Positions 34,219-47,183 of a DNA stretch of 64,000 nucleotides are shown in pieces. The stretch's first letter is position 1, and each line of letters begins with the position of its first letter. Location of the stretch: the NCBI GenBank assembly GCA_964291295.2, contig OZ219754.1:96001-160000 (forward strand), given 5' to 3'. The DNA is from an uncultured Candidatus Binatia bacterium. GTDB lineage: Bacteria; Desulfobacterota; Binatia; UBA9968; JAJDTQ01. The notes beneath the pieces are model-generated. The model did not search any database, was not told where the DNA came from, and saw only the letters and a list, made by a program, of their open reading frames with translations. Made by a program: the position numbers and the translations under genes.

Positions 34219-35250
34219 ATGGACCGACACGAACCGCGCGGCGTGGTGCACTGGATCGATCATTTCATCGTGGGCACCAATGACATGGTCACTTGGGTCG
34301 ACTGGGCCGTGAACGCCACCGGCATCACCCGGCGGCCGATTCGCGGCATTACCACCACGGCGCGAAAGAAGGATGTCCCGATCATGTGTTTCCTGTGGTG
34401 GGACAGCGAGTCCTGCCGCATCGGCGCCTTCCTGCAGCCCGAGGTCTACCCGGCCGCCAAGCCCCTGGGCGAGGACACGCCACGATGCGGATTCTACATC
34501 CGGCCCGAGGATGTGAACAGACACGTCAAGCGGCTCGAGCGCCACGCCATCCCGCACACCGGCCCGGTACGGACGGCGGACTGCGGCGAGGAGGGCACGG
34601 TGATCCACTTCGCCGACCCCGACGGCAACCAGTTCGAGTTCTGGGCGCCCGACCACATGCCGGAAGGGGCCATGGAGATATGCACGGCCGAGGGCGTCGG
34701 CCGCATCAGCCACGCGGTGTACGGCTCCCGGGATCTGGGCCGGACCGCCAGCTTTTTCGAACAGTACTGCGCCCTCAAGCCGGAGGTCGGCCCCAACGTC
34801 GCCGAGGGCAATCTGGTCCTGCGTCTGCACGCCGGCGGGCGGCTCATCTACAAGCTCGCCAACCAGGTCGACGAGCGCGTGGCCGGACACGGACCTTGGT
34901 GGGACATGCACACGGCGTTGACGGTGCGGGCGGAGGAGTTCATGCCCAACTACCGCCGGATGTGGGAAACTCTGCCAGAGGAGCGGCGGGCCAAGGAAGA
35001 GGACAACCTCTCGCTGGAGCAGGAGGACGCCCTGCCGGCCCGCACCGGTCTGCACCGGAGTCCGGTGGGTTACCGCTGGAAGGCCATGTTCGAGCGCGGC
35101 GACGAATTCTACGACTGGGACGGCCACGCCTTCCACTTCTTCGGCGGCAGGCCCGTCAAGGACGACGGTTCACTGGCCCTCTACACCATCGTGGAACAGG
35201 AAGACTATCTCACCGACGTCGCCGCGGAGGCGGAGAAGGCCCGCGCCTGA
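34219..35250 (+). CDS. VOC/glyoxalase-superfamily protein (two-module)
   Basis: WIDHFIV, IHFADPDGNQFEFW, RISHAVYGSRDL, DMHTALTV, FYDWDGHAFHF; GGAGG RBS. Confidence 0.75.
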   Translation: MDRHEPRGVVHWIDHFIVGTNDMVTWVDWAVNATGITRRPIRGITTTARKKDVPIMCFLWWDSESCRIGAFLQPEVYPAAKPLGEDTPRCGFYIRPEDVNRHVKRLERHAIPHTGPVRTADCGEEGTVIHFADPDGNQFEFWAPDHMPEGAMEICTAEGVGRISHAVYGSRDLGRTASFFEQYCALKPEVGPNVAEGNLVLRLHAGGRLIYKLANQVDERVAGHGPWWDMHTALTVRAEEFMPNYRRMWETLPEERRAKEEDNLSLEQEDALPARTGLHRSPVGYRWKAMFERGDEFYDWDGHAFHFFGGRPVKDDGSLALYTIVEQEDYLTDVAAEAEKARA

Positions 35251-35568: not shown

Positions 35569-36213
35569 GTGACCGACCGGCACAGTCTCTCCGCGCTTCT
35601 CGACGGTGCCCGCGCCTTCCGGACGACCGAATACCGCGGCGCCGATTCCCTCATGGCCCGCCTGTCCATGGGCCAGGAGCCGGATGTCCTGGTGATCGCG
35701 TGCAGCGACTCCCGGGTGGATCCGGCGCTGGTTCTCGGCGCCCGGCCCGGGGACCTTTTCGTGGTACGCGTGGTGGCGAATCTGGTGCCGGCACGGCGCG
35801 CGGACGACACGATGGCCCACGGTGTGATGGCGGCGGTGGAATACGGGTCAAAGCGCTCGGGGTCTCGCATCTGGTGGTGTGCGGCCATTCCCACTGCGGC
35901 GGAATCAAGGCCGCGACGGACGCGGCGCGGGGAAGGGAACTGCCGCCGTTCGAGTGCCTGGGGCCGTGGCCGGCGCGTCGTTCCGGGAGGTGCTGGCGGA
36001 GAGCCCGGGGCCGGCCGCCCGGATGAGGAAGTGGCGGCCGCGGCGGAGCAGCGGTCGGTGCTCAAGTCTCTTGCCAACCTGCGGTCATACGGGTGGATTC
36101 AGGATCGGGTGGAAGGAAGCCGGCTCGCCCTGCACGGCTGGTGGTTCGATATCGATACCGGCCATCTGTGGATCGCGGACACCGCGATGGGGCTCTTCCG
36201 GCCGCTGGATTGA
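35569..36213 (+). pseudogene. Beta-carbonic anhydrase with internal frameshifts
   Basis: GQEPDVLVIACSDSRVDP and GDLFVVRVVANLV in frame 1; VKALGVSHLVVCGHSHCGGIKA only in another frame; SLANLRSY and LHGWWFDIDTG back in frame 1. Confidence 0.8.
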
Positions 36214-36289
36214 CGGCGCCCGCACCACGTCGATCCGGCGGATGCGGGCGGCCGGGAGGAGCCCGGGCCGCGTCCCCGGTTGAGGCCGT

Positions 36290-36766
36290 TCAGTCTCCTG
36301 CCTGCCGCTCCCGTTCGTGAAGCCCGGCGTGTTGCCGGGGGGTCTCGGGCCGCGTGTCCCTGCCCTTCCCCCGGGTGAGCCGCAGCGTGCCGACGAACTT
36401 GACGTTGGCGCAGGCGTCGGCCCCGCCGGTGGCGCACCCTTCGTCGTCGGGGATGAGGAAGCGCAACGGTCCGCCCTTGTCCCGGGGCAAGGGGTCTTCG
36501 CCGACGCGGTAGACGATGAACGCGCGGCGTAGCGCCTCCAGAGGCACGCTGGCGGCAAAGCCGCCGTCGGTGAACTCCACGGTGAGGTAGTCCAGGTCCG
36601 GTGCGGGTTGAAGATGGTCGAGGATGGCCTGAAGCGTCACCGCGCCGCCGACCCGGCCGGGGATCAGCGTGCCGACGTCGGCGACTTGGCCGTCCAGTGC
36701 CGCAAGCCGCCGGAAGTCGAGTTCCAGCGCGGGCTTCCCTTCCTGTTCGATGCGCAGACCGCTCAT
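36290..36766 (-). CDS. Small molybdopterin-oxidoreductase (sulfite oxidase fold) domain protein
   Basis: DGGFAASVPL, GEDPLPRDKGGPLRFLIP, CANVKFVGTL; GGAGG RBS. Confidence 0.65.
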   Translation of the reverse strand: MSGLRIEQEGKPALELDFRRLAALDGQVADVGTLIPGRVGGAVTLQAILDHLQPAPDLDYLTVEFTDGGFAASVPLEALRRAFIVYRVGEDPLPRDKGGPLRFLIPDDEGCATGGADACANVKFVGTLRLTRGKGRDTRPETPRQHAGLHERERQAGD

Positions 36767-37213
36767 GGTTCCCTCCTGCGGCCAGCGTACCGCCGCCCGC
36801 CCGTCTCCTCAAGCATCCGTTCCGGTTCGGCGGCGAAGGCCGTTTCTCTTGGCGGCAGACCGGCGCTGGCGAAGGACGCGAGGATGACGACCTCGGCCGT
36901 CATCCTCAGCGAGGTGCTGGGCGGGGACAGCCAGATGGCGCTGACGGGCGACGAGCAGTGCGAACTTCACGACCGGATGCTCCGCTTGGCCGTGCCTTGC
37001 CGCGCCACAGGCTGGGCTTCAGGCCGCCTGCCGACAGCGCCGATCAAGCGCGCCGGACCCCGGCAGACGGACAACCGCGACCGAACGGATGCGCCGTTCC
37101 GCCCTCGCTCGAAAATCAACCACCCCCTCGCCTCAACACGCCGGAACACAAGACCGACCGGACCTGGACCACCCTCTCCTGCGGCCGAACAGGCACCACG
37201 GCGCAAATTTTGC

Positions 37214-37285
37214 TTGCTTGACAGGGGGGGGATGGTAAGCGTCCGTGACAGGCCCACATGCAACCACATGAATGCAACCACATGA
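37214..37285 (+). promoter_or_regulatory. Putative promoter with a G8 tract and a 14-bp tandem repeat upstream of the RTX gene
   Basis: TTGCTTGACA, G8 (37224-37231), TGG-TAAGCG; ATGCAACCACATGA twice (37258-37285). Confidence 0.4.
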
Positions 37286-37768
37286 CCAGATCAGGAGGGT
37301 TTTACCATGGCTATTGAGCGGACCGGCGGTGCTGGCAACGAATGGCTTTGGGGAGAGAATGGCAATGACAGGTTGGATGGCGGTGCCGGTGACGACATTT
37401 TGACTGGCGGCGCCGGTGACGATACTTTGGCTGGCGGTTCGGGCAATGACCGGATCTGGGGCGGCATTGACGACGACAGGCTGGAAGGCGGCGCTGGAGA
37501 CGACAGACTGACGGGCGGCGTCGGCGCCGACACCTTCGTGTTCCGTACGGGAGACGGCAGCGACACCATTGCCGACTTCAAGGCCGACGATACGATCGAG
37601 ATGGTCGGCGTGTCGGGCGGGTTCGAAGCGTTGGTCATCGAGCAGGATGGCGTCAACGCCGTCATCCGCTACGGCGATCAGGACACGATCACGCTGCTGA
37701 ACGTGACGGCCGCATCGCTGAGCAGGGACGCCTTCCGTTTCGTGACCGCGGAAAGGAAGGTTCTGATG

Positions 37769-38005
37769 GGCGGCAAGGGCGACGACACGCTGAACGGCGG
37801 GGTCGGCGATGACACGCTGAGGGGCAACAAGGGCGACGATACGCTGAACGGCGGGGTCGGCGATGACACGCTGAGGGGCGGCAAGGGCGACGATACGCTG
37901 AACGGCGGGGTCGGCGGCGACACGCTGAGGGGCGGCAAGGGCGACGACACGCTGAACGGCGGGGTCGGCGATGACACGCTGAGGGGCGACAAGGGCGACG
38001 ATACC
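37769..38005 (+). repeat. 54-bp tandem repeat, about 4.4 copies ([18 protein letters not shown])
   Basis: Near-identical nucleotide units inside the RTX gene. Confidence 0.9.
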
Positions 38006-38332
38006 TTCGTGTTCGTGGTCGGAGACGGCGACGACACGATCACCGATTTCGAGGCCGGCGACAGGATTCGCCTGGATGGCGTATCCGGCGGGTTCGCGGC
38101 GCTGCGTATCGAACAGGACGGCACCGATACCGTCATCGGCTACAGCGGCGACGATACGATCACCCTGTCGGGCGTGTCAGCGGACAGCCTGGACGCGAAC
38201 GACTTCATCTTGCCCGCCGGCGCTGGCGAAACCACCGAAACACAATCCCGCAACGGCGTTACTCTCAGTGGCGGCGGCTATGACGACGATCTCAGAGGCG
38301 GCGACGGCAACGACGGGCTCTGAGGCGGCGAC

Positions 38333-38596
38333 GGCGACGACACCCTGAACGGCGGCGACGGCAATGACTACCTCTATGGCGGCGACGGTGCCGACACGCT
38401 GAACGGCGGCGAGGGTATTGACCATCTCCACGGCGGCGCTGGCGACGACACCCTGAACGGCGGCGACGGCAACGACTACCTCTATGGCGGCGACGGTGCC
38501 GACACGCTGAACGGCGGCGAGGGTATTGACCATCTCCACGGCGGCGCTGGCGACAACACCCTGAACGGCGGCGACGGCAACGACTACCTCTATGGC
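38333..38596 (+). repeat. 108-bp tandem repeat, about 2.4 copies (RTX units)
   Basis: [36 protein letters not shown] repeated almost exactly at the DNA level. Confidence 0.9.
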
Positions 38597-39084
38597 AAAG
38601 CTGGCGACGACACGCTGACGGGCGGCTCAGGGGCGGATGCGTTTGTGTTCACGGCCGGTGACGGGGCTGACACGATCACCGATTTCGAGGCAGGCGACAC
38701 AATCGCGATCACCGGTCACCGCGGCGGGTTTTCGGCTTTGCGCATCAAACAGGATGGTGCCGATACCGTTATCGGTTACGGTTCCGACACGATTCGTCTT
38801 GAAGACGTTCAGTCTGCGCAACTGACCGTATCCGATTTCGATTTTCCGTGGTTCTACTTTATGGGCTGATCTTTCCCGGTTTGACCTTTCGGGACGTCCG
38901 GCCTTGGTGGCGCCTGCAACCGCCGTTCCGTGCGCCACCCCGCCGGCAGTGGCAGTGACACATGGGTGCGGTCCCTGCCGGCGCCTGCCCGGGCGCGCCG
39001 CCGACCGAAACACTCAAGAGTCTCGTTCACTCACCCCGTCGACATGGACCTGAGCCTTGGGTTCCGCCGCCCGAGGGCTTGCAT

Positions 39085-39270
39085 GCAAGCGCCGCGCGGT
39101 TGCCCTTGTTGATGGTTGAAGCTTTTGATTGTCGGTGTGAAGTTCCAGGGCATGAGGTCGTCGATTGCCGGTCAGGTAGACCTGCGGATGGACGCCGTTG
39201 GGCTTGCGGGTGCCGATCAGGCTGGCGCATCGCGCTTGGGTTCTGTCGCCGTCATGGCTGCCGGCAAGCG
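39085..39270 (-). mobile_element. IS66-family transposase C-terminal remnant
   Basis: Minus strand LAGSHDGDRTQARCASLIGTRKPNGVHPQVYL, then after a shift IDDLMPWNF, resembling the IS66 TnpC C-terminus; GCAAGCG near 39085 resembles a decayed GTAAGCG end. Confidence 0.65.
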
Positions 39271-39526
39271 GGTGCGCGGGTCCGGACGGGAGGTGGGGAG
39301 TCCCCACCGGCAACGGGCGGGATGCCGGCGGACCTCCTCTCGCGGCGTCGGGATCTGCGGATACGATGCAGCGAGTCCTCTCCGGTTGCGAAGGAAGCCG
39401 TCCCATACCCCAGACCATCATCCCTTCGTGCAGACAGATGGTCGCAGAAGCCGAAGCGGCGGTACCCGTACTGGACGTGCAGGAAGCGAGATTGCGCTGG
39501 CGGACGGTGCGGGTGTCGCTACGGGC

Positions 39527-39790
39527 TCAGCGCCCGGGTCTGGTGGCCAGCACCTCGTCGAGGCTCGCCGCCACCAGCACCGCCTCCGCCCAAGTCTCCA
39601 GTTCGGCGGCCGAGGCGCCGCGGATCCGCTCGCGGACCACATCCGGCACGTCACCGAAATGCAGTTCCAGAAGACGAAGGACAATTCCAGCCTGGCCCTC
39701 CGCGCGGCCTTCCTCCCGGCCCTCGCTCCGGCCCCGTTCGATTCCCTCAGCTCTTCCCTGTTCGATCCAGGCTTGCGCGACCGTTCCCAT
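39527..39790 (-). CDS. Putative internally initiated small Rpn C-terminal protein (RpnS-like, 87 aa)
   Basis: GGAGG 5 nt before an in-frame ATG (MGTVAQAWIEQG...); open to the stop. Confidence 0.5.
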   Translation of the reverse strand: MGTVAQAWIEQGRAEGIERGRSEGREEGRAEGQAGIVLRLLELHFGDVPDVVRERIRGASAAELETWAEAVLVAASLDEVLATRPGR

Positions 39791-40509
39791 CAGCGCCTCC
39801 CAGCGGTCCGGCTTCGTCCGGCGCAGCGACGCCTCCAGCAAGGGCGGCGTCAGGTTCATGCGCTCGGCAATGTAACGCACGATATGACGCTCGAACGCGC
39901 TCCCCGCAACCGGCCCGCCCGTCATCTCGTCGAGAAGGTCGGGCGGTATCTCCTCGGCATAAACGACCCTGAGCGCCAGAAGCCCGGCCCGCACCTCGGG
40001 CGAGGCCGACAGCCGGCTTGGCGCGATCTCGCGTGCACCACATGGGCGAACTCCCTGACGAACGGCTCCAGCGCCTCGGGCGCGTCGATCATCCCCGGCA
40101 CCGAGCGCGGCGCCGTCCAGCGACCCCGGCCGTGGTAGAAGACCAGCGGGATGATCGCCGGCAGCCTGTCCCCGGCGACGCCATTCTCGATCTCGCGGCG
40201 CCAGATGTTGACCATGTATTTCAGGAGCTGGAGCGGCGTGTCGGCGTCGACCCGGCTCTTGTTCTCCAGGAGTACAGACAGGCGCGCATCGTGGCCGCTC
40301 CTCAGCCTGACCCGGAACAGCGCGTCGCACCGGGTCCGCGCCGCGTCCTCGTCGACGAAACCGCCCTCGACCGCCTCGGGCGGGGCCTCGGGGTCGAGGA
40401 GGGCGGCCACCTCTTGCGGCAGGTATTCCGCGAGCAGCGAAGCGGCGCGGGCCGGCTCGGAGACCAGCGCCCGGAACAGTGCATCGTGCGGCGTCGCCGG
40501 AAGGCTCAC
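39527..40509 (-). pseudogene. Rpn/YhgA-like (Transposase_31) PD-(D/E)XK nuclease, frameshifted near 40030
   Basis: PHDALFR, RCDALFRV, LENKS, QLLKYMVNIW, IIPLVFYHG in one frame; C-terminal EQGRAEGIERGRSEGREEGRAEG...LELHFG in another. Confidence 0.82.
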
Positions 40510-40679
40510 CGGGAGAGACCCCCGGCATCTCCGGGACGCTCCCGACGGACATCCCGCTCACGGGCTGGAAGAGAAAGGGCGTTCGACATGGCGGTACCCT
40601 ACGCCGGGCACTGTCGTGTCGGCAATCGCCGGCGTCTGCCCCGAGAACAGGCCGGGACCGTCATCACGAGCGGTAGTCC

Positions 40680-41410
40680 CCGAGGATATCGGCGGCAATG
40701 CTGTCGGAGTGACGCGGACGACGGACCCGCGCACCGGGTTCCGCGCCAGATGCGCATACCATGCGGTGGTCTCCACCCGGGTGTGGCCGAGCAGCCGGCC
40801 GATCATCGGCAAACCCTCGCCCGGCGCCAGCGCCCCGCTGGCGACCGACTGGCGGCAATCGTGAAGCCGGGCGTTCCCGATCCCCGCGCGCCGGCAGACC
40901 CGTTCCCACGGGTCATGGAGGTTGTGCATGTGCGTGCCCCTCTTCTTCCCAGGGATCACATGCGGGTTGCACTGGACGCGGGGAATGTTCGCCAGCACGT
41001 CCACTGCCTCCGGCGACACGGCGCGCGCCGGTCTTGGAATCCGCGAGCCGCAACTCGCGTGCATCCAGGTCCACATCCTGCCAGCGCAGCGTCACGATCT
41101 CGTTCCTGCGGCAGCCCATGAGCAGCAGGAGCCGGATCGCGGCAATGGCATGCACCGAGACCCCTTTGCGGTTCTCCGCCTCGGCCAGCGTCCGCCCGAG
41201 GTGGCGGAACTCCTCCTCGCTCAGGAACCGCTCGCGCCCAACGTTCCCGGTTCTTCACAACCAGCCGGCAGGGGTTGCTCGCCTTCGGCAGCTGCCCCTG
41301 GTCCTCCGCCGCGTTTCACAGGCGCGAAAGGGTGCTGACCACTTGGTCCGCCGTCACCGGGGTCGCGCGCAGGGAATGGCGCAGTTCCGTCACCTTGGCA
41401 TGGTCCAATG
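40680..41410 (-). pseudogene. Tyrosine recombinase/phage integrase remnant
   Basis: Frameshifted pieces ERFLSEEEF, LLLLMGCRRNEIVTLRWQDVD, DSKTG, RLHDCRQSVAS, IGRLLGHTRVETTAWYAHL. Confidence 0.85.
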
Positions 41411-41450
41411 CCAGTTGGACCAGGAGCCCGGCGAATTTCCAACCGCGGTT

Positions 41451-41686
41451 TTGTCCAACGCAAAGTGAGCCTGAAGCAGGGGTGTCGGGGATCATCAGGA
41501 GATGATCGTGACACTTCGAACGGAACGCCCGGGGACTATCGAGCCGGTTGCGGCCTTGTTCGAGGCGAACGAGCCTGTAGACTTTCACCCGACCGAGCGA
41601 GCCCCCGCTCACCCCGTCGGCCCACATCTCAACACAACCCCCGGCATGGGAAAGTCCTGGCGCCGCTCGCACATCGTATTGAAAAC
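41451..41686 (+). mobile_element. Possible internally deleted IS remnant
   Basis: TGTCCAACGCAAAGTGAGCCTGA end-like sequence; short ORF MIVTLRTER...EPVDF resembling a transposase N-terminus; weak inverted match CGCACATCGTATTGAAAA. Confidence 0.35.
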
Positions 41687-41741
41687 CCGTCCCTGATCTG
41701 CAAACATTCCGCAGAAATTCCTTCTCAATCGGGAGGCTCTC

Positions 41742-42626
41742 ATGGACGTGGTCAAGGTCGACTTCAGGAACACCAAGGGGATTCCGCCGTCCGGTCTCTG
41801 CGTGGGCGTGCACCGCGCCGGCGCCATGCATCGGAAGATGGTGCAAAAACACGGCAACGGCATCGCGGTGTGGTCGCTGAGGCCGGAGAACGACTTCATC
41901 GCCTTCAAGACGCTGGAAGATGAAGCGGGCATCCGTTCCACCAGCGACATGGAGTCGATCAGGGAGGAAAAGCTCATCTACGGCGTCCGGGGTGCGCCGC
42001 CGGAGGTTCGGCGGCAGGCGAAGGAGCAGGGTCTGGAACTGCTGGCCGACGCCACCTGTCCGTTCGTGGTTCAGCAGGAGGAAGCGGAACTGGAGCTGCT
42101 GGACCAGGGTTGCCACCTGGTCATCCTGAGCAGCCGCACGCACCACGGTATTCCGCGTCTCATGGGTATCGCCGAAGAGAAGGGGCGGGAGGTGTTCATC
42201 GTCGAGAGGGAAACGGATGTCGACGACATCCGACTGACCCGCTTCGAGCCCGTGGGAGTCATCGTCCAGACCACGTTCTGGATGGAGAGCTACACGAAGA
42301 TCATGACCCGGATCCTGGAGCGCTTCGCCAACGTTCGCATTCGCAACACCGCCTGCATCGACTCGCTGCAGCGGCTGCCCAAGGTCGAGGAATTGGCGCG
42401 TGACGTGGAGGCGGTGGTCATCTTCGGCTGGACCGAGGGCATGACCTACCGCATGGAGGAGGTGGCGCGGGCCTTCAATGACAACGTCTACCGTATCGAG
42501 AAGATCGAGGACCTGAACCCCGCGTGGTTCACGGGCAAGTCCCGGATCGGCATTGTCGGCGCCAACGAGACCACCGATGAATTGGTGGACGGGGCGGTGG
42601 AACGCATCAAGTCCATGGCCGCCTGA
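41742..42626 (+). CDS. IspH/LytB-like [4Fe-4S] protein, divergent
   Basis: GLCVGV, DATCPFV, VQTT, NTACIDS, DLNPAWF, GIVGA; substrate-binding residues altered. Confidence 0.75.
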   Translation: MDVVKVDFRNTKGIPPSGLCVGVHRAGAMHRKMVQKHGNGIAVWSLRPENDFIAFKTLEDEAGIRSTSDMESIREEKLIYGVRGAPPEVRRQAKEQGLELLADATCPFVVQQEEAELELLDQGCHLVILSSRTHHGIPRLMGIAEEKGREVFIVERETDVDDIRLTRFEPVGVIVQTTFWMESYTKIMTRILERFANVRIRNTACIDSLQRLPKVEELARDVEAVVIFGWTEGMTYRMEEVARAFNDNVYRIEKIEDLNPAWFTGKSRIGIVGANETTDELVDGAVERIKSMAA

Positions 42627-42641
42627 GCAGGATCAACACCC

Positions 42642-44120
42642 ATGTCCAAATCCCTGTCCAAGTCCGCCGCCGTGGAAGCCCGACTGCCTTATCACGATCT
42701 CCGCGAATGGATGGCCCGGGCCGATGCCCTGGGCGAACTCCGCACCGTCACCGGGGCCAGCTGGGAAGAAGACATCGGTCTGGCCGCCGACGCCGTGATC
42801 CGGGTCGACGACGGCCCGGCGGTGCTGTTCGACCAGGTTCCCGGCTGCCCCAGGGGGTTCCGCGTCCTGATCAACACGTTCGCCGGCAAGCGCCGGAACA
42901 TGACGCTCGGATTTCCCGGGCACCTCACCAAGCAGGAGTTGAGCCAGGCCTTCTTTGACCATTACATCAAGGTGCAGCGCCGGCTGCCCCATGTGGGGGT
43001 GGATGACGGACCGGTGTTCGAGAACATCCTCACCGGCGATGACATCGACATCACCCGGTTCCCCACGCCCAAGTGGCACGCGGACGACGGCGGCCGCTAC
43101 ATCGGAACGGGTTGCTTCTGCGTGACCATCGACCCCGAGGAGCGCTGGATCAACGTCGGCACCTACCGCGCCATGGTGCAGGACAGGAAATCGGTGAGCC
43201 TCCTGTTCGTCCCCGGCAAGCACGCCTACATGCACCGCAAGAAGTACTTCGACAAGGGCCAGCCCATGCCCGTGGCCCTGGTGGTGGGCAGCGACCCCAT
43301 GTCGTTCTTCGTGGGGGGCACGGAGTTTCCCTACGGCGTCTGCGAGTTCGACGTCGTGGGCGGGCTGCGCGGCACGCCCGTCGAAGTGGTGCGGGGCAAG
43401 GTCACCGGCCTGCCCTTCCCCGCCAACGCCGAGATCGTGCTGGAAGGATTCCTGACCGCGGACCACCGCGCGGTGGAGGGGCCGTTCGGGGAGTGGACCG
43501 GCTACTATGCCGGCGGTGCCAGCGAGCAGCCCACGCTGGACATCCGCGCCGTCTACCACCGCAACGACCCCATCATCCTGGGGGTGCCGCCGCTGGGCGC
43601 GGGCTCCGACGAGATGGCCCGCTACCGCGCCATCATGCGCTCGGCCATGCTGAAGCACGAACTGATCCAGGCCGGCGTCCCGGACGTGACCCAGGTATGG
43701 TGCCACGAGGTGGGCGCCTCGCGCCTGCTGCACGGCATCGGCATCAAGCAGCGTTATCCCGGCCACGCCCGGCAGGCGGGCACTCTGGCCTCCACCTGCG
43801 GCTCGGTGGTGTACGGCTGCAAGTTCGTCATCGTGGTGGACGACGACATCGACGTGTCCAACCTGGACCAGTTGATATGGGCCATGCTCACCCGGTGCGA
43901 TCCGGAGACCTCCATCGAGATCCTGCGCCGGATGCGCACCTCTCCCGCCGACCCGCGGGTGACGCCGGAACAGCGCAGGACCCGCGACATCACCAACTCC
44001 CGCGTCGTCGTGGACGCCTGCCGTCCCTTCGAGTGGTTCGACAGCTATCCCAAGGTCAATGCGCCCGGCCCGGATGTGGTCCGAAAGGCTCACGAAAAAT
44101 TCGGCTACCTGCTGGACTGA
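42642..44120 (+). CDS. UbiD-family (prFMN) decarboxylase/carboxylase
   Basis: DDGGRYIGT, NVGTYR, PANAEIVLEG, EGPFGEWTGYY, IVVDDDIDV, WAMLTRCDP. Confidence 0.92.
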   Translation: MSKSLSKSAAVEARLPYHDLREWMARADALGELRTVTGASWEEDIGLAADAVIRVDDGPAVLFDQVPGCPRGFRVLINTFAGKRRNMTLGFPGHLTKQELSQAFFDHYIKVQRRLPHVGVDDGPVFENILTGDDIDITRFPTPKWHADDGGRYIGTGCFCVTIDPEERWINVGTYRAMVQDRKSVSLLFVPGKHAYMHRKKYFDKGQPMPVALVVGSDPMSFFVGGTEFPYGVCEFDVVGGLRGTPVEVVRGKVTGLPFPANAEIVLEGFLTADHRAVEGPFGEWTGYYAGGASEQPTLDIRAVYHRNDPIILGVPPLGAGSDEMARYRAIMRSAMLKHELIQAGVPDVTQVWCHEVGASRLLHGIGIKQRYPGHARQAGTLASTCGSVVYGCKFVIVVDDDIDVSNLDQLIWAMLTRCDPETSIEILRRMRTSPADPRVTPEQRRTRDITNSRVVVDACRPFEWFDSYPKVNAPGPDVVRKAHEKFGYLLD

Positions 44121-44138
44121 GCGCACGGGGACCGACAC

Positions 44139-44693
44139 GTGACCCCCGGCGCCGCCCGCTTCGCCCAAGCCGCCCTGGTGGGAGACTCGGACGCATCCGA
44201 ACACAACCTGACGCTGGCCGAGGAGGCCGGCGCGATGCTTGCGCGGCTGGGCGTCACCCTGATCACCGGCGGACGGGGCGGGGTCATGGAGGCGGCTTCC
44301 CGAGGCGCCGCGCGGGCCGGCGGCCTCACCGTGGGAATCACCCCCGGCACCGACACGAGAGCCGCCAACCCCTGGTGTGACGTGATCCTGCCCACTGGCC
44401 TCGGCCATGCCCGCAACGTCCTCACCGCGCTGGCCGGCGACTTTGTCGTGGCGGTGGGCGGCGGTGCCGGCACCCTTTCCGAGCTGTGCTTCGCATGGAT
44501 TCACCGGCGCCCCCTGTACGTCCTGCGCGGTTCGGGCGGTTGGTCCGACCGGCTGGCCGGCGGCCCGCTCGATCACCGCGCCGCATCGGTGATCGTCGAC
44601 TGTGACAGCGTCAACACGCTGGAACGCCAGGTGGTGCGCTTCTGCGCCGCGAGCGGACTGCGGATCCGCGAGCCGGGTGCGGAACGAGGCTGA
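44139..44693 (+). CDS. LOG/SLOG family protein (TIGR00725-like)
   Basis: ITGGRGGVMEAASRGA, TGLGHARN, GGGAGTLSE. Confidence 0.85.
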   Translation: MTPGAARFAQAALVGDSDASEHNLTLAEEAGAMLARLGVTLITGGRGGVMEAASRGAARAGGLTVGITPGTDTRAANPWCDVILPTGLGHARNVLTALAGDFVVAVGGGAGTLSELCFAWIHRRPLYVLRGSGGWSDRLAGGPLDHRAASVIVDCDSVNTLERQVVRFCAASGLRIREPGAERG

Positions 44694-44732
44694 GGCGGCG
44701 TTCCGCCCGATGCCCGCGGTGGTGCATGAATC

Positions 44733-45788
44733 ATGAACGCGCGCTCACCGGCACTGTTCTGGCTCCTGGTGCTGGCGGCGGCGCTGCTGCTGGTCTGGCT
44801 TCTGAGCGATGTCCTGTTTCCCTTCGCGCTGGGCATCGCCCTGGCCTACGCCCTGGACCCGGCCGCCTCCTGGCTGGTCCGGCGCGGCTGCACGCGCACG
44901 GCGGCCGCGGTCCTCATTGGCGCCGGCTTTTTCGGCGCCGGATTGCTGCTGCTGTTGCTGCTCCTCCCGCCCGTGCTGGAGCAGGCTTCGGACCTGCTCC
45001 AGCACCTTCCGGGACTGGTCTCCCGAATCGGCGAATCCATCGGACCGCTTCTGGGCCGGGCCCTGCAAGCCGTGGGCGCCGACCCGCCCGAGGGACTGCC
45101 CGAGGCGCTGACCGGCATGGCCCGGCTGGGACGGGACCTGTTCAAGGGACTGGCGAGCGGCGGCGGTGCGGTCATCCACATCGCTTCCCTGCTGACCCTC
45201 ACCCCCCTCACCACTTTCTACGTGCTGCGGCAATGGCCCGGCATCGTCGCCGCCGTGGATGACGGGCTGCCCCGGGACCATGCCGGCACGGTGCGCGGCA
45301 TCATGCGCGACATCGACGTGGTGCTCAAGGGCTTCGTCCACGGCTCGGTCATCATCTGCGCGGTGCTGGGGGCTTTCTACGGCCTTGCGCTGTCGCTGGC
45401 CGGCCTCGACTACGGCCTCACCATCGGACTCGCCACCGGCCTCCTCTCCTTCATCCCCCATGTGGGAACAATCTTCGGGCTGGTGTCGTCCGCGGGCGTC
45501 GCCTTCCTGCAATTCTGGCCGGAATGGTTGCGCATCGCCGTGGTCCTGGGCATCTTCCTCGCGGGCCAACTGCTGGCCGACCACGTCCTGATGCCCCGGG
45601 TCATGGGCCGCCGCATCGCCCTCCACCCCCTGTGGCTGGTCTTCGGCCTGTTCGCCGGCGGCGCCCTCTTCGGCTTCGTCGGCATGCTGCTGTCGGTGCC
45701 CGCCACCGCCGCCGCCGGCGTCCTCACCCGCTTCTTCCTCCGGCGCTACAAGGACTCCCCCCTGTATCGCGGCGCGGGCGGCGCCTGA
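44733..45788 (+). CDS. AI-2E (PerM) family transporter
   Basis: LFPFALGIALAYALDP, SFIPHVG, PRVMG...LHPLWLVFGLFAGGALFGFVGMLLSVP. Confidence 0.88.
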   Translation: MNARSPALFWLLVLAAALLLVWLLSDVLFPFALGIALAYALDPAASWLVRRGCTRTAAAVLIGAGFFGAGLLLLLLLLPPVLEQASDLLQHLPGLVSRIGESIGPLLGRALQAVGADPPEGLPEALTGMARLGRDLFKGLASGGGAVIHIASLLTLTPLTTFYVLRQWPGIVAAVDDGLPRDHAGTVRGIMRDIDVVLKGFVHGSVIICAVLGAFYGLALSLAGLDYGLTIGLATGLLSFIPHVGTIFGLVSSAGVAFLQFWPEWLRIAVVLGIFLAGQLLADHVLMPRVMGRRIALHPLWLVFGLFAGGALFGFVGMLLSVPATAAAGVLTRFFLRRYKDSPLYRGAGGA

Positions 45789-46106
45789 CCCGCGGCCGAC
45801 GCTCCGGAGCCACACGCCGCGCCCGTCTTGCCACGCACACCGGGGTGGGCTTGCATCGCATCCATGGGCATCCTGACCACGCCGCCAGGCTGCTGGACAT
45901 TCGAATTCGTGGGTCATGGCCGCGGGCCGTCGAGGTTCGCGCGCCGACTTCGCACGTCCACGCGCCTGGGATTGATCGGCATGAATTCGCGACTCGCTCC
46001 GCATACCCGCCGCCGGCACGGATGCCGCCTTGGCAAGTGCGGTCCGGCGGTGTTACAGGGTCGGTGGAGTGGTTCAAGGCGCGACCGTCGACGTACGAGG
46101 TGAGGA

Positions 46107-47183
46107 ATGGAACTGGAGCGGGATATCGAGGAAATTCGCGATGCGGCGAGGACCGGTCTCATGGAAACGGCGGCGGACGTTTCCCAGGGCATCGTGCTTC
46201 GATTGCTGCAATCTCTGGGATGGCCAACCTTCGATACGCGAACGGTCCGCCCGCAATACGGTCTTGAAAAGAGCCGGGTCGATTTCGCTCTCTGCCATCC
46301 GCCGGGAAGGCCGGTTGTCTTCATCAAGGTGACGAGGAAGCATATCGGTCAGGGCGGCGGCGCGGAAAGACAACTGTTCGAGCATGCGTTTCACACGGAA
46401 GTGCGGCTGGTGATCCTGACGGATGGTCGGGAGTGGCATTTCTTTCTTCCCTTTCTTCCGGGGCAGCGGCGCGGCTACGAGGAGCGGCGTATCTGCAAAC
46501 TCGATATCGTGGAACGGCAGATTGACGAATGTGCGCAGAGGCTGAGCCGATACCTGAAGTACGACGACATGCGTTCCGGGAGGGCAATCGAAGCTGCACG
46601 GGAGGACTATCGAGATGCCTCCCGCAAACGGCAAATCGAGAAGACCCTGCGGCAGGCATGGATGCAACTGGTGGCGGAAGAGGATGATATCCTGCTGGAG
46701 TTGCTGGCAGACAAGGTGAAAAGTCTCTGCGGATACAAACCGGACCCCGATACGATTGCACGCTTCCTCAAGAAGAGTTCAGCCTCTTTCGTACCGACCC
46801 TACCGCCTCCCACACCTGCGCCACCCGAGGGAGGTGAATCAAAGGCACCCGGATTCACATTCGAGGGGAAACGGCACCCGGCGCACAGTGCCATGGATGT
46901 CCTTGTGAGCCTGCTGGAGAAGCTGACCGAACACGACCCCTCGTTTCCGGAACGATTTGCCCGTCTTCCCACTCATGGTCGCACGCGGCGGTATCTCGCA
47001 CGCGACCGCGAGGCCTTGTACCCGGGTCGTCCCGACCTGGCGCGGGACTGTTCCAGACGATTGGAATCGGGTTGGTGGGTGGGTACAAACTTCAGCCGCG
47101 CAGGCATCCGCCGAATTATCGGGATGGCCTGCGATGTCGCCGGTATTCGGTACGACGACCTGCATGTGGAGTTGGGCGGGTAA
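46107..47183 (+). CDS. HsdR_N-type restriction endonuclease-like protein with a putative SeqA-like C-terminal DNA-binding domain
   Basis: VLRLLQSLGW, RVDFAL, QLFEHA, ILTDGREWHF; Pro linker; C-terminal GRTRRYLA...GWWVGTNFS. Confidence 0.68.
   Translation: MELERDIEEIRDAARTGLMETAADVSQGIVLRLLQSLGWPTFDTRTVRPQYGLEKSRVDFALCHPPGRPVVFIKVTRKHIGQGGGAERQLFEHAFHTEVRLVILTDGREWHFFLPFLPGQRRGYEERRICKLDIVERQIDECAQRLSRYLKYDDMRSGRAIEAAREDYRDASRKRQIEKTLRQAWMQLVAEEDDILLELLADKVKSLCGYKPDPDTIARFLKKSSASFVPTLPPPTPAPPEGGESKAPGFTFEGKRHPAHSAMDVLVSLLEKLTEHDPSFPERFARLPTHGRTRRYLARDREALYPGRPDLARDCSRRLESGWWVGTNFSRAGIRRIIGMACDVAGIRYDDLHVELGG

Follow-up and report, generated by a model that had tools for sequence, protein, structure and literature searches.

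An IspH-like subfamily of Binatia with a replaced diphosphate pocket, a 2Fe-2S ferredoxin neighbour and, in one genus, a place beside a UbiD-family decarboxylase

The gene block and its IspH-like protein

The window analyzed here, a stretch of 64,000 nucleotides (C1:96001-160000) from the genome of an uncultured Binatia bacterium (G000; 3.70 Mb, 99% complete), contains a block of four plus-strand genes that opens with a gene resembling ispH. This IspH-like gene (41742-42626) encodes a LytB-fold protein of 294 amino acids (PF02401 LYTB, 139.9 bits) that belongs to a Binatia-restricted subfamily. It is followed after 15 nt by the gene of a 492-aa UbiD-family decarboxylase (42642-44120), after a further 18 nt by that of a 184-aa SLOG cluster4/TIGR00725 protein (44139-44693) and after 39 nt by that of a 351-aa AI-2E family permease (44733-45788; PF01594, 172.3 bits), the fourth gene of a block that is specific to the genus. 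The original prediction, made from the letters of the window, had read the first three genes as an operon in which a repurposed IspH paralogue serves the UbiD protein.

The description of the gene as a paralogue stands: a canonical ispH lies at 1.16 Mb on the same contig (C1:1159660-1160490; PF02401, 321.7 bits), so the copy in the window is not the only ispH of the genome. The canonical product passes NF002188 (469.9 versus a cut-off of 420) and TIGR00216 (313.9 versus 187.85), whereas the IspH-like protein falls below all seven IspH equivalog cut-offs (for instance, TIGR00216, 117.7 versus 187.85; NF002187, 129.6 versus 276). Its relatives at loci L111 and L102 likewise score below every IspH equivalog cut-off. 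In each of the 24 further genomes of the genus, the paralogue (86-93% identity) is found along with a canonical-type match, and a canonical ispH also accompanies the paralogue in the two distant genomes of the L101 and L111 lineage. Although public annotation names the relatives 4-hydroxy-3-methylbut-2-enyl diphosphate (HMBPP) reductase or hypothetical protein, the product of the IspH-like gene is not the housekeeping HMBPP reductase.

The protein nonetheless has the LytB fold, a three-domain trefoil, as indicated by the PF02401 match, by a model built from 34 clade members (predicted local distance difference test, pLDDT, 90.6; predicted template modelling score, pTM, 0.85) and by Foldseek, which with this model returned significant matches solely to IspH structures (template modelling score 0.79-0.82 to E. 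coli IspH:HMBPP; next ≤0.23). An Atlas search with the protein found LytB clusters only. All of the motifs quoted in the original prediction (GLCVGV, DATCPF, TACID, QTT, VRG, HHG, TEGM and GAN) are present in the translation. Alignment to the canonical IspH of the genome and to the solved IspH proteins of A. aeolicus and E. coli bore out that the three cluster cysteines and QTT are kept: C20, C106 and C205 align with the canonical cluster cysteines and are invariant in the clade, and the Thr of the proton-relay pair (presumably T167 in E. coli numbering) is retained within QTT. We predict that the protein carries a [4Fe-4S] cluster with an open iron site.

The surroundings of the cluster differ from those in IspH. 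We take the diphosphate-binding residues of the E. coli enzyme to be H41, H74, H124, S225, S226, N227 and S269, and its proton-relay residues to be E126 and T167. The reported change of the diphosphate-binding set was confirmed: the His of VHN is replaced by E49, the His of AHG by R83, SSN by E/G/M and the Ser of GAS by N275 or E276. The further claim that HPE has become HHG with loss of the catalytic Glu held as regards the Glu, which is missing in both alignments, but the register of HPE is ambiguous and its His may persist. In the HMMER register, HPE aligns with H134-H135-G136, the Glu position being occupied by G136 and the His (E. coli H124) possibly kept; in the MAFFT register, the Glu of HPE aligns with R139. 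The 34 clade members, which reach down to 39% identity, have 47 invariant columns, including S45-L-R47-P48, R83-G-A-P-P, Q112-E113, H134-H135-G136, R139, D207, R211, P213, N275 and T277, and because of this invariance the motif substitutions are not due to chance. The invariant pocket set of the clade comprises SLRP-E/D, RGAPP, QE after the second Cys, HHG.PR, C.D..R.P after the third Cys, GW.EGM and GANET. Judged from the alignments, a new invariant residue set replaces both the His/Ser/Asn diphosphate cradle and the Glu, and a substrate that is probably not a diphosphate, as had been suggested, would be the natural reading of a pocket rebuilt in this way.

Scanning prokaryotes at one genome per species yielded 63 loci with the IspH-like gene, nearly all of them in Candidatus Binatia or in bins under labels such as Deltaproteobacteria; a few others are labelled differently and may be binning errors. 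Only 24 representatives with E <1e-30 were found among 1.84 billion proteins. Full-length members at greater distance include P0124 (43% identity), P0130 (39%), and P0141 and P0143 (34-35%), all four of which are singletons; P0124 and P0130 have SLRP-E/D, RGAPP, HHG followed two residues later by R, QTT and GAN-type motifs, while P0141 and P0143 carry the set partly, P0141 being without the first Cys. Two metagenome scans for the genomic contexts of these distant members returned no relative, or just canonical-type matches at 22-28%. A quick tree of 64 rows splits the clade from the canonical-type sequences with a support of 100. We conclude that, within the LytB/IspH fold, the protein represents a subfamily of its own with hardly any members outside Binatia. 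The gene is under purifying selection, with a median ratio of nonsynonymous to synonymous substitution rates of 0.12, against 0.11 for UbiD (window versus 25 genus orthologues, the pairs being non-independent). Among the family members, the IspH-like gene of one f3 bin (L103 = G039:C427) is split into overlapping pieces (468-1136 and 1100-1732) on a 3.2-kb contig, and the 370-aa protein P0083 contains an internal repeat of ~75 residues; both may be assembly or frameshift artefacts.

Ferredoxin neighbours and a proposed relocation in the genus

We compared the neighbourhoods of the 63 loci, 25 in the window's genus and 38 outside it, by tblastn. The most widespread neighbour of the IspH-like gene is a small 2Fe-2S ferredoxin. 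Among the 33 non-genus loci that could be judged for its presence (a complete IspH-like gene and ≥350 nt of downstream sequence), 30 have a 93-aa ferredoxin of the Fer2 type downstream on the same strand, in 27 cases at a gap of 2-23 nt. This ferredoxin passes PF00111 (Fer2 fold) and thus shares its fold with the ISC-type and plant-type 2Fe-2S ferredoxins, but it departs from their standard four-Cys motif, C-x4-C-x2-C...C: all 30 listed sequences, together with the genome's own copy (31 in all), have C-x4-C-x2-D...C, in which Asp takes the place of the third Cys. No NCBIfam ferredoxin cut-off was reached, and among solved chains E. coli Fdx comes nearest (1I7H, E 1.1e-9). At locus L111, a ferredoxin reductase (Pyr_redox_2 plus Reductase_C) and a thiamine diphosphate-dependent enzyme are encoded upstream on the opposite strand.

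The genome of the window has an orthologue of this ferredoxin (72% identity) at C1:539030-539305 (L128:7022-7306, minus strand), followed by a gene of the phosphoenolpyruvate mutase family and with a metallo-β-lactamase (MBL)-fold gene 3.2 kb upstream. In family f2 the gene order is MBL, IspH-like, ferredoxin, while in another member of the genus MBL adjoins the ferredoxin gene. Because of this difference in order, we infer that the IspH-like gene moved out of the MBL/ferredoxin locus in an ancestor of the genus.

The remaining neighbours outside the genus vary by clade and include 3-deoxy-D-arabino-heptulosonate 7-phosphate (DAHP) synthase, MBL, OCD/mu-crystallin, a Fer4 protein, AhpD-like selenoproteins, GntR and VOC proteins, as well as cupin, GST and NMT1-type binding proteins. 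All five CMD/AhpD-like genes inspected (L080:8226-8780, L082:10495-11049, L087:3472-4026, L108:3529-4077 and L107:10554-10900) contain an in-frame TGA within a C-S-Y-(TGA) motif. They resemble the known AhpD-like type of selenoprotein.

The UbiD gene and the extent of its linkage

The protein encoded next to the IspH-like gene in the window has the three UbiD domains (PF01977, 212.7 bits; PF20696, 102.5 bits; PF20695, 33.1 bits) and passes the subfamily model TIGR00148 (267.3 versus a cut-off of 244.85). Among solved structures, it comes closest to 7PDA (E 9e-109, residues 18-474), which is PhdA, the phenazine-1-carboxylic acid decarboxylase of Mycolicibacterium fortuitum, with Glu269 as active-site Glu (PMC10850782). 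The stretch EGPFGEWTGY in the region of the catalytic Glu is identical in the two proteins; the UbiD of the window is, for its part, one of 27 paralogues in its genome. The third gene had been assigned to the LOG family, a label that we replace: its product scores below the LOG models (PF03641, 24.2 versus 27; TIGR00730, 47.1 versus 96.35; NF058542, 33.3 versus 300) and passes instead those of SLOG cluster4 (PF18306, 135.9 bits) and TIGR00725 (127.1 versus a cut-off of 106.9), so that by NCBIfam it is not a LOG phosphoribohydrolase. Its nearest solved chains are 1RCU, 6Y01 and 2IZ5, a molybdenum cofactor carrier protein (E ~1e-22; 2IZ5, ~7e-22). As originally reported, the window lacks a ubiX: PF02441 has just two matches in the genome, at C1:3.10 and 3.25 Mb, the former a 422-aa frame and the latter the genome's UbiX, a 197-aa open reading frame (ORF; C1:3252788-3253381; NF004685, 271.1 versus a cut-off of 188). 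Nor does any of the 63 loci have a ubiX within 7 kb.

Every one of the 25 species-level loci of the genus has the IspH-like, UbiD and SLOG genes in this order, and the permease follows SLOG in 22 of them; among the loci examined, SLOG adjoins a window-type UbiD in these 25 and nowhere else. The usual upstream neighbour in the genus is a VOC/glyoxalase-superfamily gene (346 aa), which is found upstream in 14 of the 25 loci at variable distance. Its counterpart in the window (34219-35220, plus strand; 91% identity by tblastn to the genus upstream gene; PF00903 weak, 23.8-25.4 bits) is 6.5 kb away from the IspH-like gene, with inserted DNA between them. This stretch of window-specific DNA (35569-41076) encodes a beta-carbonic anhydrase (35569-36213), a molybdopterin-domain ORF (36290-36766, minus strand), an RTX-repeat protein (37307-38323), a YhgA-like transposase with DUF4351 (39527-40561, minus strand) and a phage-integrase fragment (40558-41076, minus strand); the carbonic anhydrase, molybdopterin-domain and RTX genes occur in no other compared locus. 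A scan of 41000-46200 for promoters and terminators found nothing exceeding shuffled sequence.

Outside the genus, adjacency to UbiD was found only at L101 and L111, where the order is TauE-type permease, IspH-like, ferredoxin, UbiD. The linkage to ubiD on which the original prediction was built thus holds for 25 of 25 loci of one genus and for two loci of one distant lineage and for none of the other 36, so as a general rule it fails. Further genomes with the IspH-like/ferredoxin pair make the same point: all five carry an orthologue of the window's UbiD (70-75% identity) elsewhere, with no IspH-like, ferredoxin, SLOG or permease gene within 1.5 kb, so it is false that a genome with both genes always has them side by side. 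Family f2 has the IspH-like gene and no clear orthologue of the window's UbiD (best match 47-48%), L122 being left unplaced in the UbiD tree. Among 11 f3 genomes, IspH matches are of the canonical type only in eight, absent in two, and in one include the split paralogue on the 3.2-kb contig; three of the five tested f3 genomes with canonical-type IspH only carry an orthologue of the window's UbiD (71-75% identity), and no IspH-like, SLOG or permease gene was found within 6 kb of these three. By eye, the N-termini of ORFs near the f3 orthologues (L147-L149) resemble a PF04909 Amidohydro_2 protein, and nearby ORFs at L147 and L148 look like NMT1-type binding proteins.

A quick UbiD tree of 46 rows places the UbiD of the window in an orthogroup of 13 rows (support 100). 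The UbiDs of L101 and L111 fall, together with a second copy from G047, in a sister group (support 96), and the two groups form a clade of 16 rows (support 100). We had considered the L101 and L111 UbiDs as strict orthologues of the window's protein, and their place in a sister orthogroup of the enlarged tree rules this out. The IspH-like gene therefore came beside two closely related UbiD types in two lineages. Each gene works without the other, since both occur apart in other genomes, and the pattern fits an optional, lineage-specific cooperation between them; the UbiD link is weaker than the original prediction held.

UbiD genes are numerous in these bacteria, with 27 over the cut-off in the genome of the window, 25-31 in three f2 genomes, 27-59 in five f3 genomes, and 12 and 18 in the L111 and L101 genomes, respectively. 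With 27 genes in a 3.7 Mb genome, the expansion of the UbiD family in Binatia is very large, and in the literature outside subscription journals we found no paper naming both Binatota and UbiD.

Candidate functions of the IspH-like protein

We propose that the IspH-like protein is a ferredoxin-dependent [4Fe-4S] enzyme for a non-diphosphate substrate that was relocated beside a PhdA-like UbiD in the genus of the window, and we give this reading an even chance of being right. The Cys3-Asp ferredoxin would pass electrons to the IspH-like protein, itself served by the accompanying ferredoxin reductase in one lineage, and the protein would carry out an IspH-type two-electron step, such as the reductive removal of an allylic or benzylic hydroxyl from a small molecule without a diphosphate. 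The two new invariant Arg and two acidic residues of the pocket suggest a carboxylate-bearing or zwitterionic substrate; a carboxylate would fit the acid handled by UbiD, but the contexts outside the genus vary. In the genus, the IspH-like gene would have left the MBL/ferredoxin site to sit before UbiD, SLOG and the permease, with the ferredoxin gene staying behind, an arrangement suggesting that this lineage in particular uses the protein together with a (de)carboxylase of aromatic or unsaturated acids, though not in an obligatory partnership. Compared with IspH/LytB itself (PF02401; TIGR00216; PDB 3DNF, 3KE8), the protein has the same full-length fold, the three Cys and the Thr of QTT, and a dependence on reduced ferredoxin is likely to be a further common trait; plant, cyanobacterial and apicoplast IspH use a 2Fe-2S ferredoxin. 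It differs in its swapped diphosphate ligands and Glu, in failing the equivalog models, in always coexisting with a canonical copy and in its confinement to one candidate phylum.

Three other readings keep the protein in the service of UbiD. If the IspH-like protein made or consumed the acid of the adjacent UbiD in a dedicated step, the VOC, IspH-like, UbiD, SLOG and permease genes would form one catabolic or biosynthetic unit, as the gaps of 15 and 18 nt and the preservation of the block in 25 of 25 genus loci would lead one to expect; moreover, the distant lineage joins the IspH-like and ferredoxin genes to a UbiD of the sister orthogroup with a TauE-type permease, so that a transporter is present in both arrangements. 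We consider such a dedicated role unlikely, though it deserves some weight, given that the UbiD orthologue is at another site in all five other genomes with the IspH-like gene, that three of five f3 genomes lacking the latter keep the window's UbiD, and that f2 has the IspH-like gene with a best UbiD match of just 47-48%. A more general role in the supply or maturation of prenylated flavin mononucleotide (prFMN), as had been proposed originally, is unlikely, since five f3 genomes without the paralogue still hold 27-59 UbiD genes. For supply, one could envisage that the protein reduces a monophosphate counterpart of HMBPP, so that UbiX receives dimethylallyl phosphate and many UbiDs are served in turn: UbiX uses dimethylallyl monophosphate, an IspH fold stands beside UbiD, and the genomes have at least 27 UbiD genes. 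The f3 genomes, however, attain their UbiD numbers with canonical-type IspH only, most of the 63 loci are without UbiD and none has ubiX within 7 kb, and the catalytic Glu as well as the Ser and His that would hold a monophosphate are gone, which makes this version highly improbable. A role in assisting or maturing UbiD, for instance as an Fe-S protein by which reduced prFMN is oxidized to the active iminium form without oxygen, with SLOG as a cofactor carrier, would suit an operon order that puts the IspH-like gene ahead of UbiD and the nearness of the SLOG protein to the molybdenum cofactor carrier 2IZ5. It meets the same phyletic objections (UbiD without the paralogue in f3, the genes apart in five of five genomes); in addition, SLOG stands beside a window-type UbiD in one genus only, and the conserved pocket residues would seem to resemble a substrate site more than a docking surface, and we rate it as very unlikely.

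Two further readings leave UbiD aside. That the protein is a second isozyme of IspH, still reducing HMBPP, is what the Pfam LYTB match, the full-length IspH fold and the public annotation of relatives as HMBPP reductase would imply; with a TIGR00216 score of 117.7 against 187.85, the other equivalogs also failed, the diphosphate ligands and Glu replaced, and a canonical copy in every examined genome with the paralogue, we find this scarcely credible. A non-catalytic Fe-S protein (an electron carrier, sensor or regulator) that merely kept the fold would explain the loss of the catalytic Glu and the inconsistent pathway context across clades. Yet many invariant polar residues occupy IspH pocket-lining positions, as mapped by alignment only, QTT is kept, and the gene is tightly paired with an electron donor as in reductase systems, which leaves a non-catalytic role improbable.

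Several observations also weigh against the ferredoxin-dependent enzyme that we favour. Three of the 33 judgeable non-genus loci (L093, L099 and L110) have no downstream ferredoxin, and in the genome of the window the ferredoxin gene is ~400 kb from the IspH-like gene. The varied contexts outside the genus point to no consistent pathway. Within the genus, a gene for a 383-aa AAA_14 plus DUF4143 ATPase, read from the opposite strand, separates the IspH-like gene from UbiD in two of the 25 loci (L053:7900-9051 and L061:8100-9251, both on the minus strand) and, with 12-59 UbiD genes per genome, adjacency to some UbiD is not very improbable. Loss of the proton-relay Glu could mean a chemistry unlike that of IspH, or none. 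The trees of both the IspH-like protein and UbiD are quick searches with support from the Shimodaira-Hasegawa-like approximate likelihood ratio test (SH-aLRT) only, and the cluster, electron donor and reaction type proposed here derive from sequence and genomic context.

We tentatively advance, at slightly less than even confidence, that the subfamily embodies a second enzymatic function of the LytB/IspH fold, which is not known to serve more than one reaction. Together with a dedicated Cys3-Asp ferredoxin, the protein would cleave a C-O bond of a carboxylate-type substrate reductively at the open iron, or carry out a related two-electron step there, and in some lineages would feed or follow a PhdA-like UbiD. 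A literature search covering titles and the starts of abstracts, with subscription journals outside its scope, brought up no publication in which a LytB-family paralogue acts on a different substrate. IspH has been treated as a single-function family and as a drug target; if our proposal is true, the rebuilt branch would show that its open-iron [4Fe-4S] cluster can support other chemistry, and the automatic annotation of relatives as HMBPP reductase would be corrected. Binatia are uncultured and widespread in soils and sponges, with 27-59 UbiD genes per genome, and a handle on their metabolism of aromatic and unsaturated acids would be useful.

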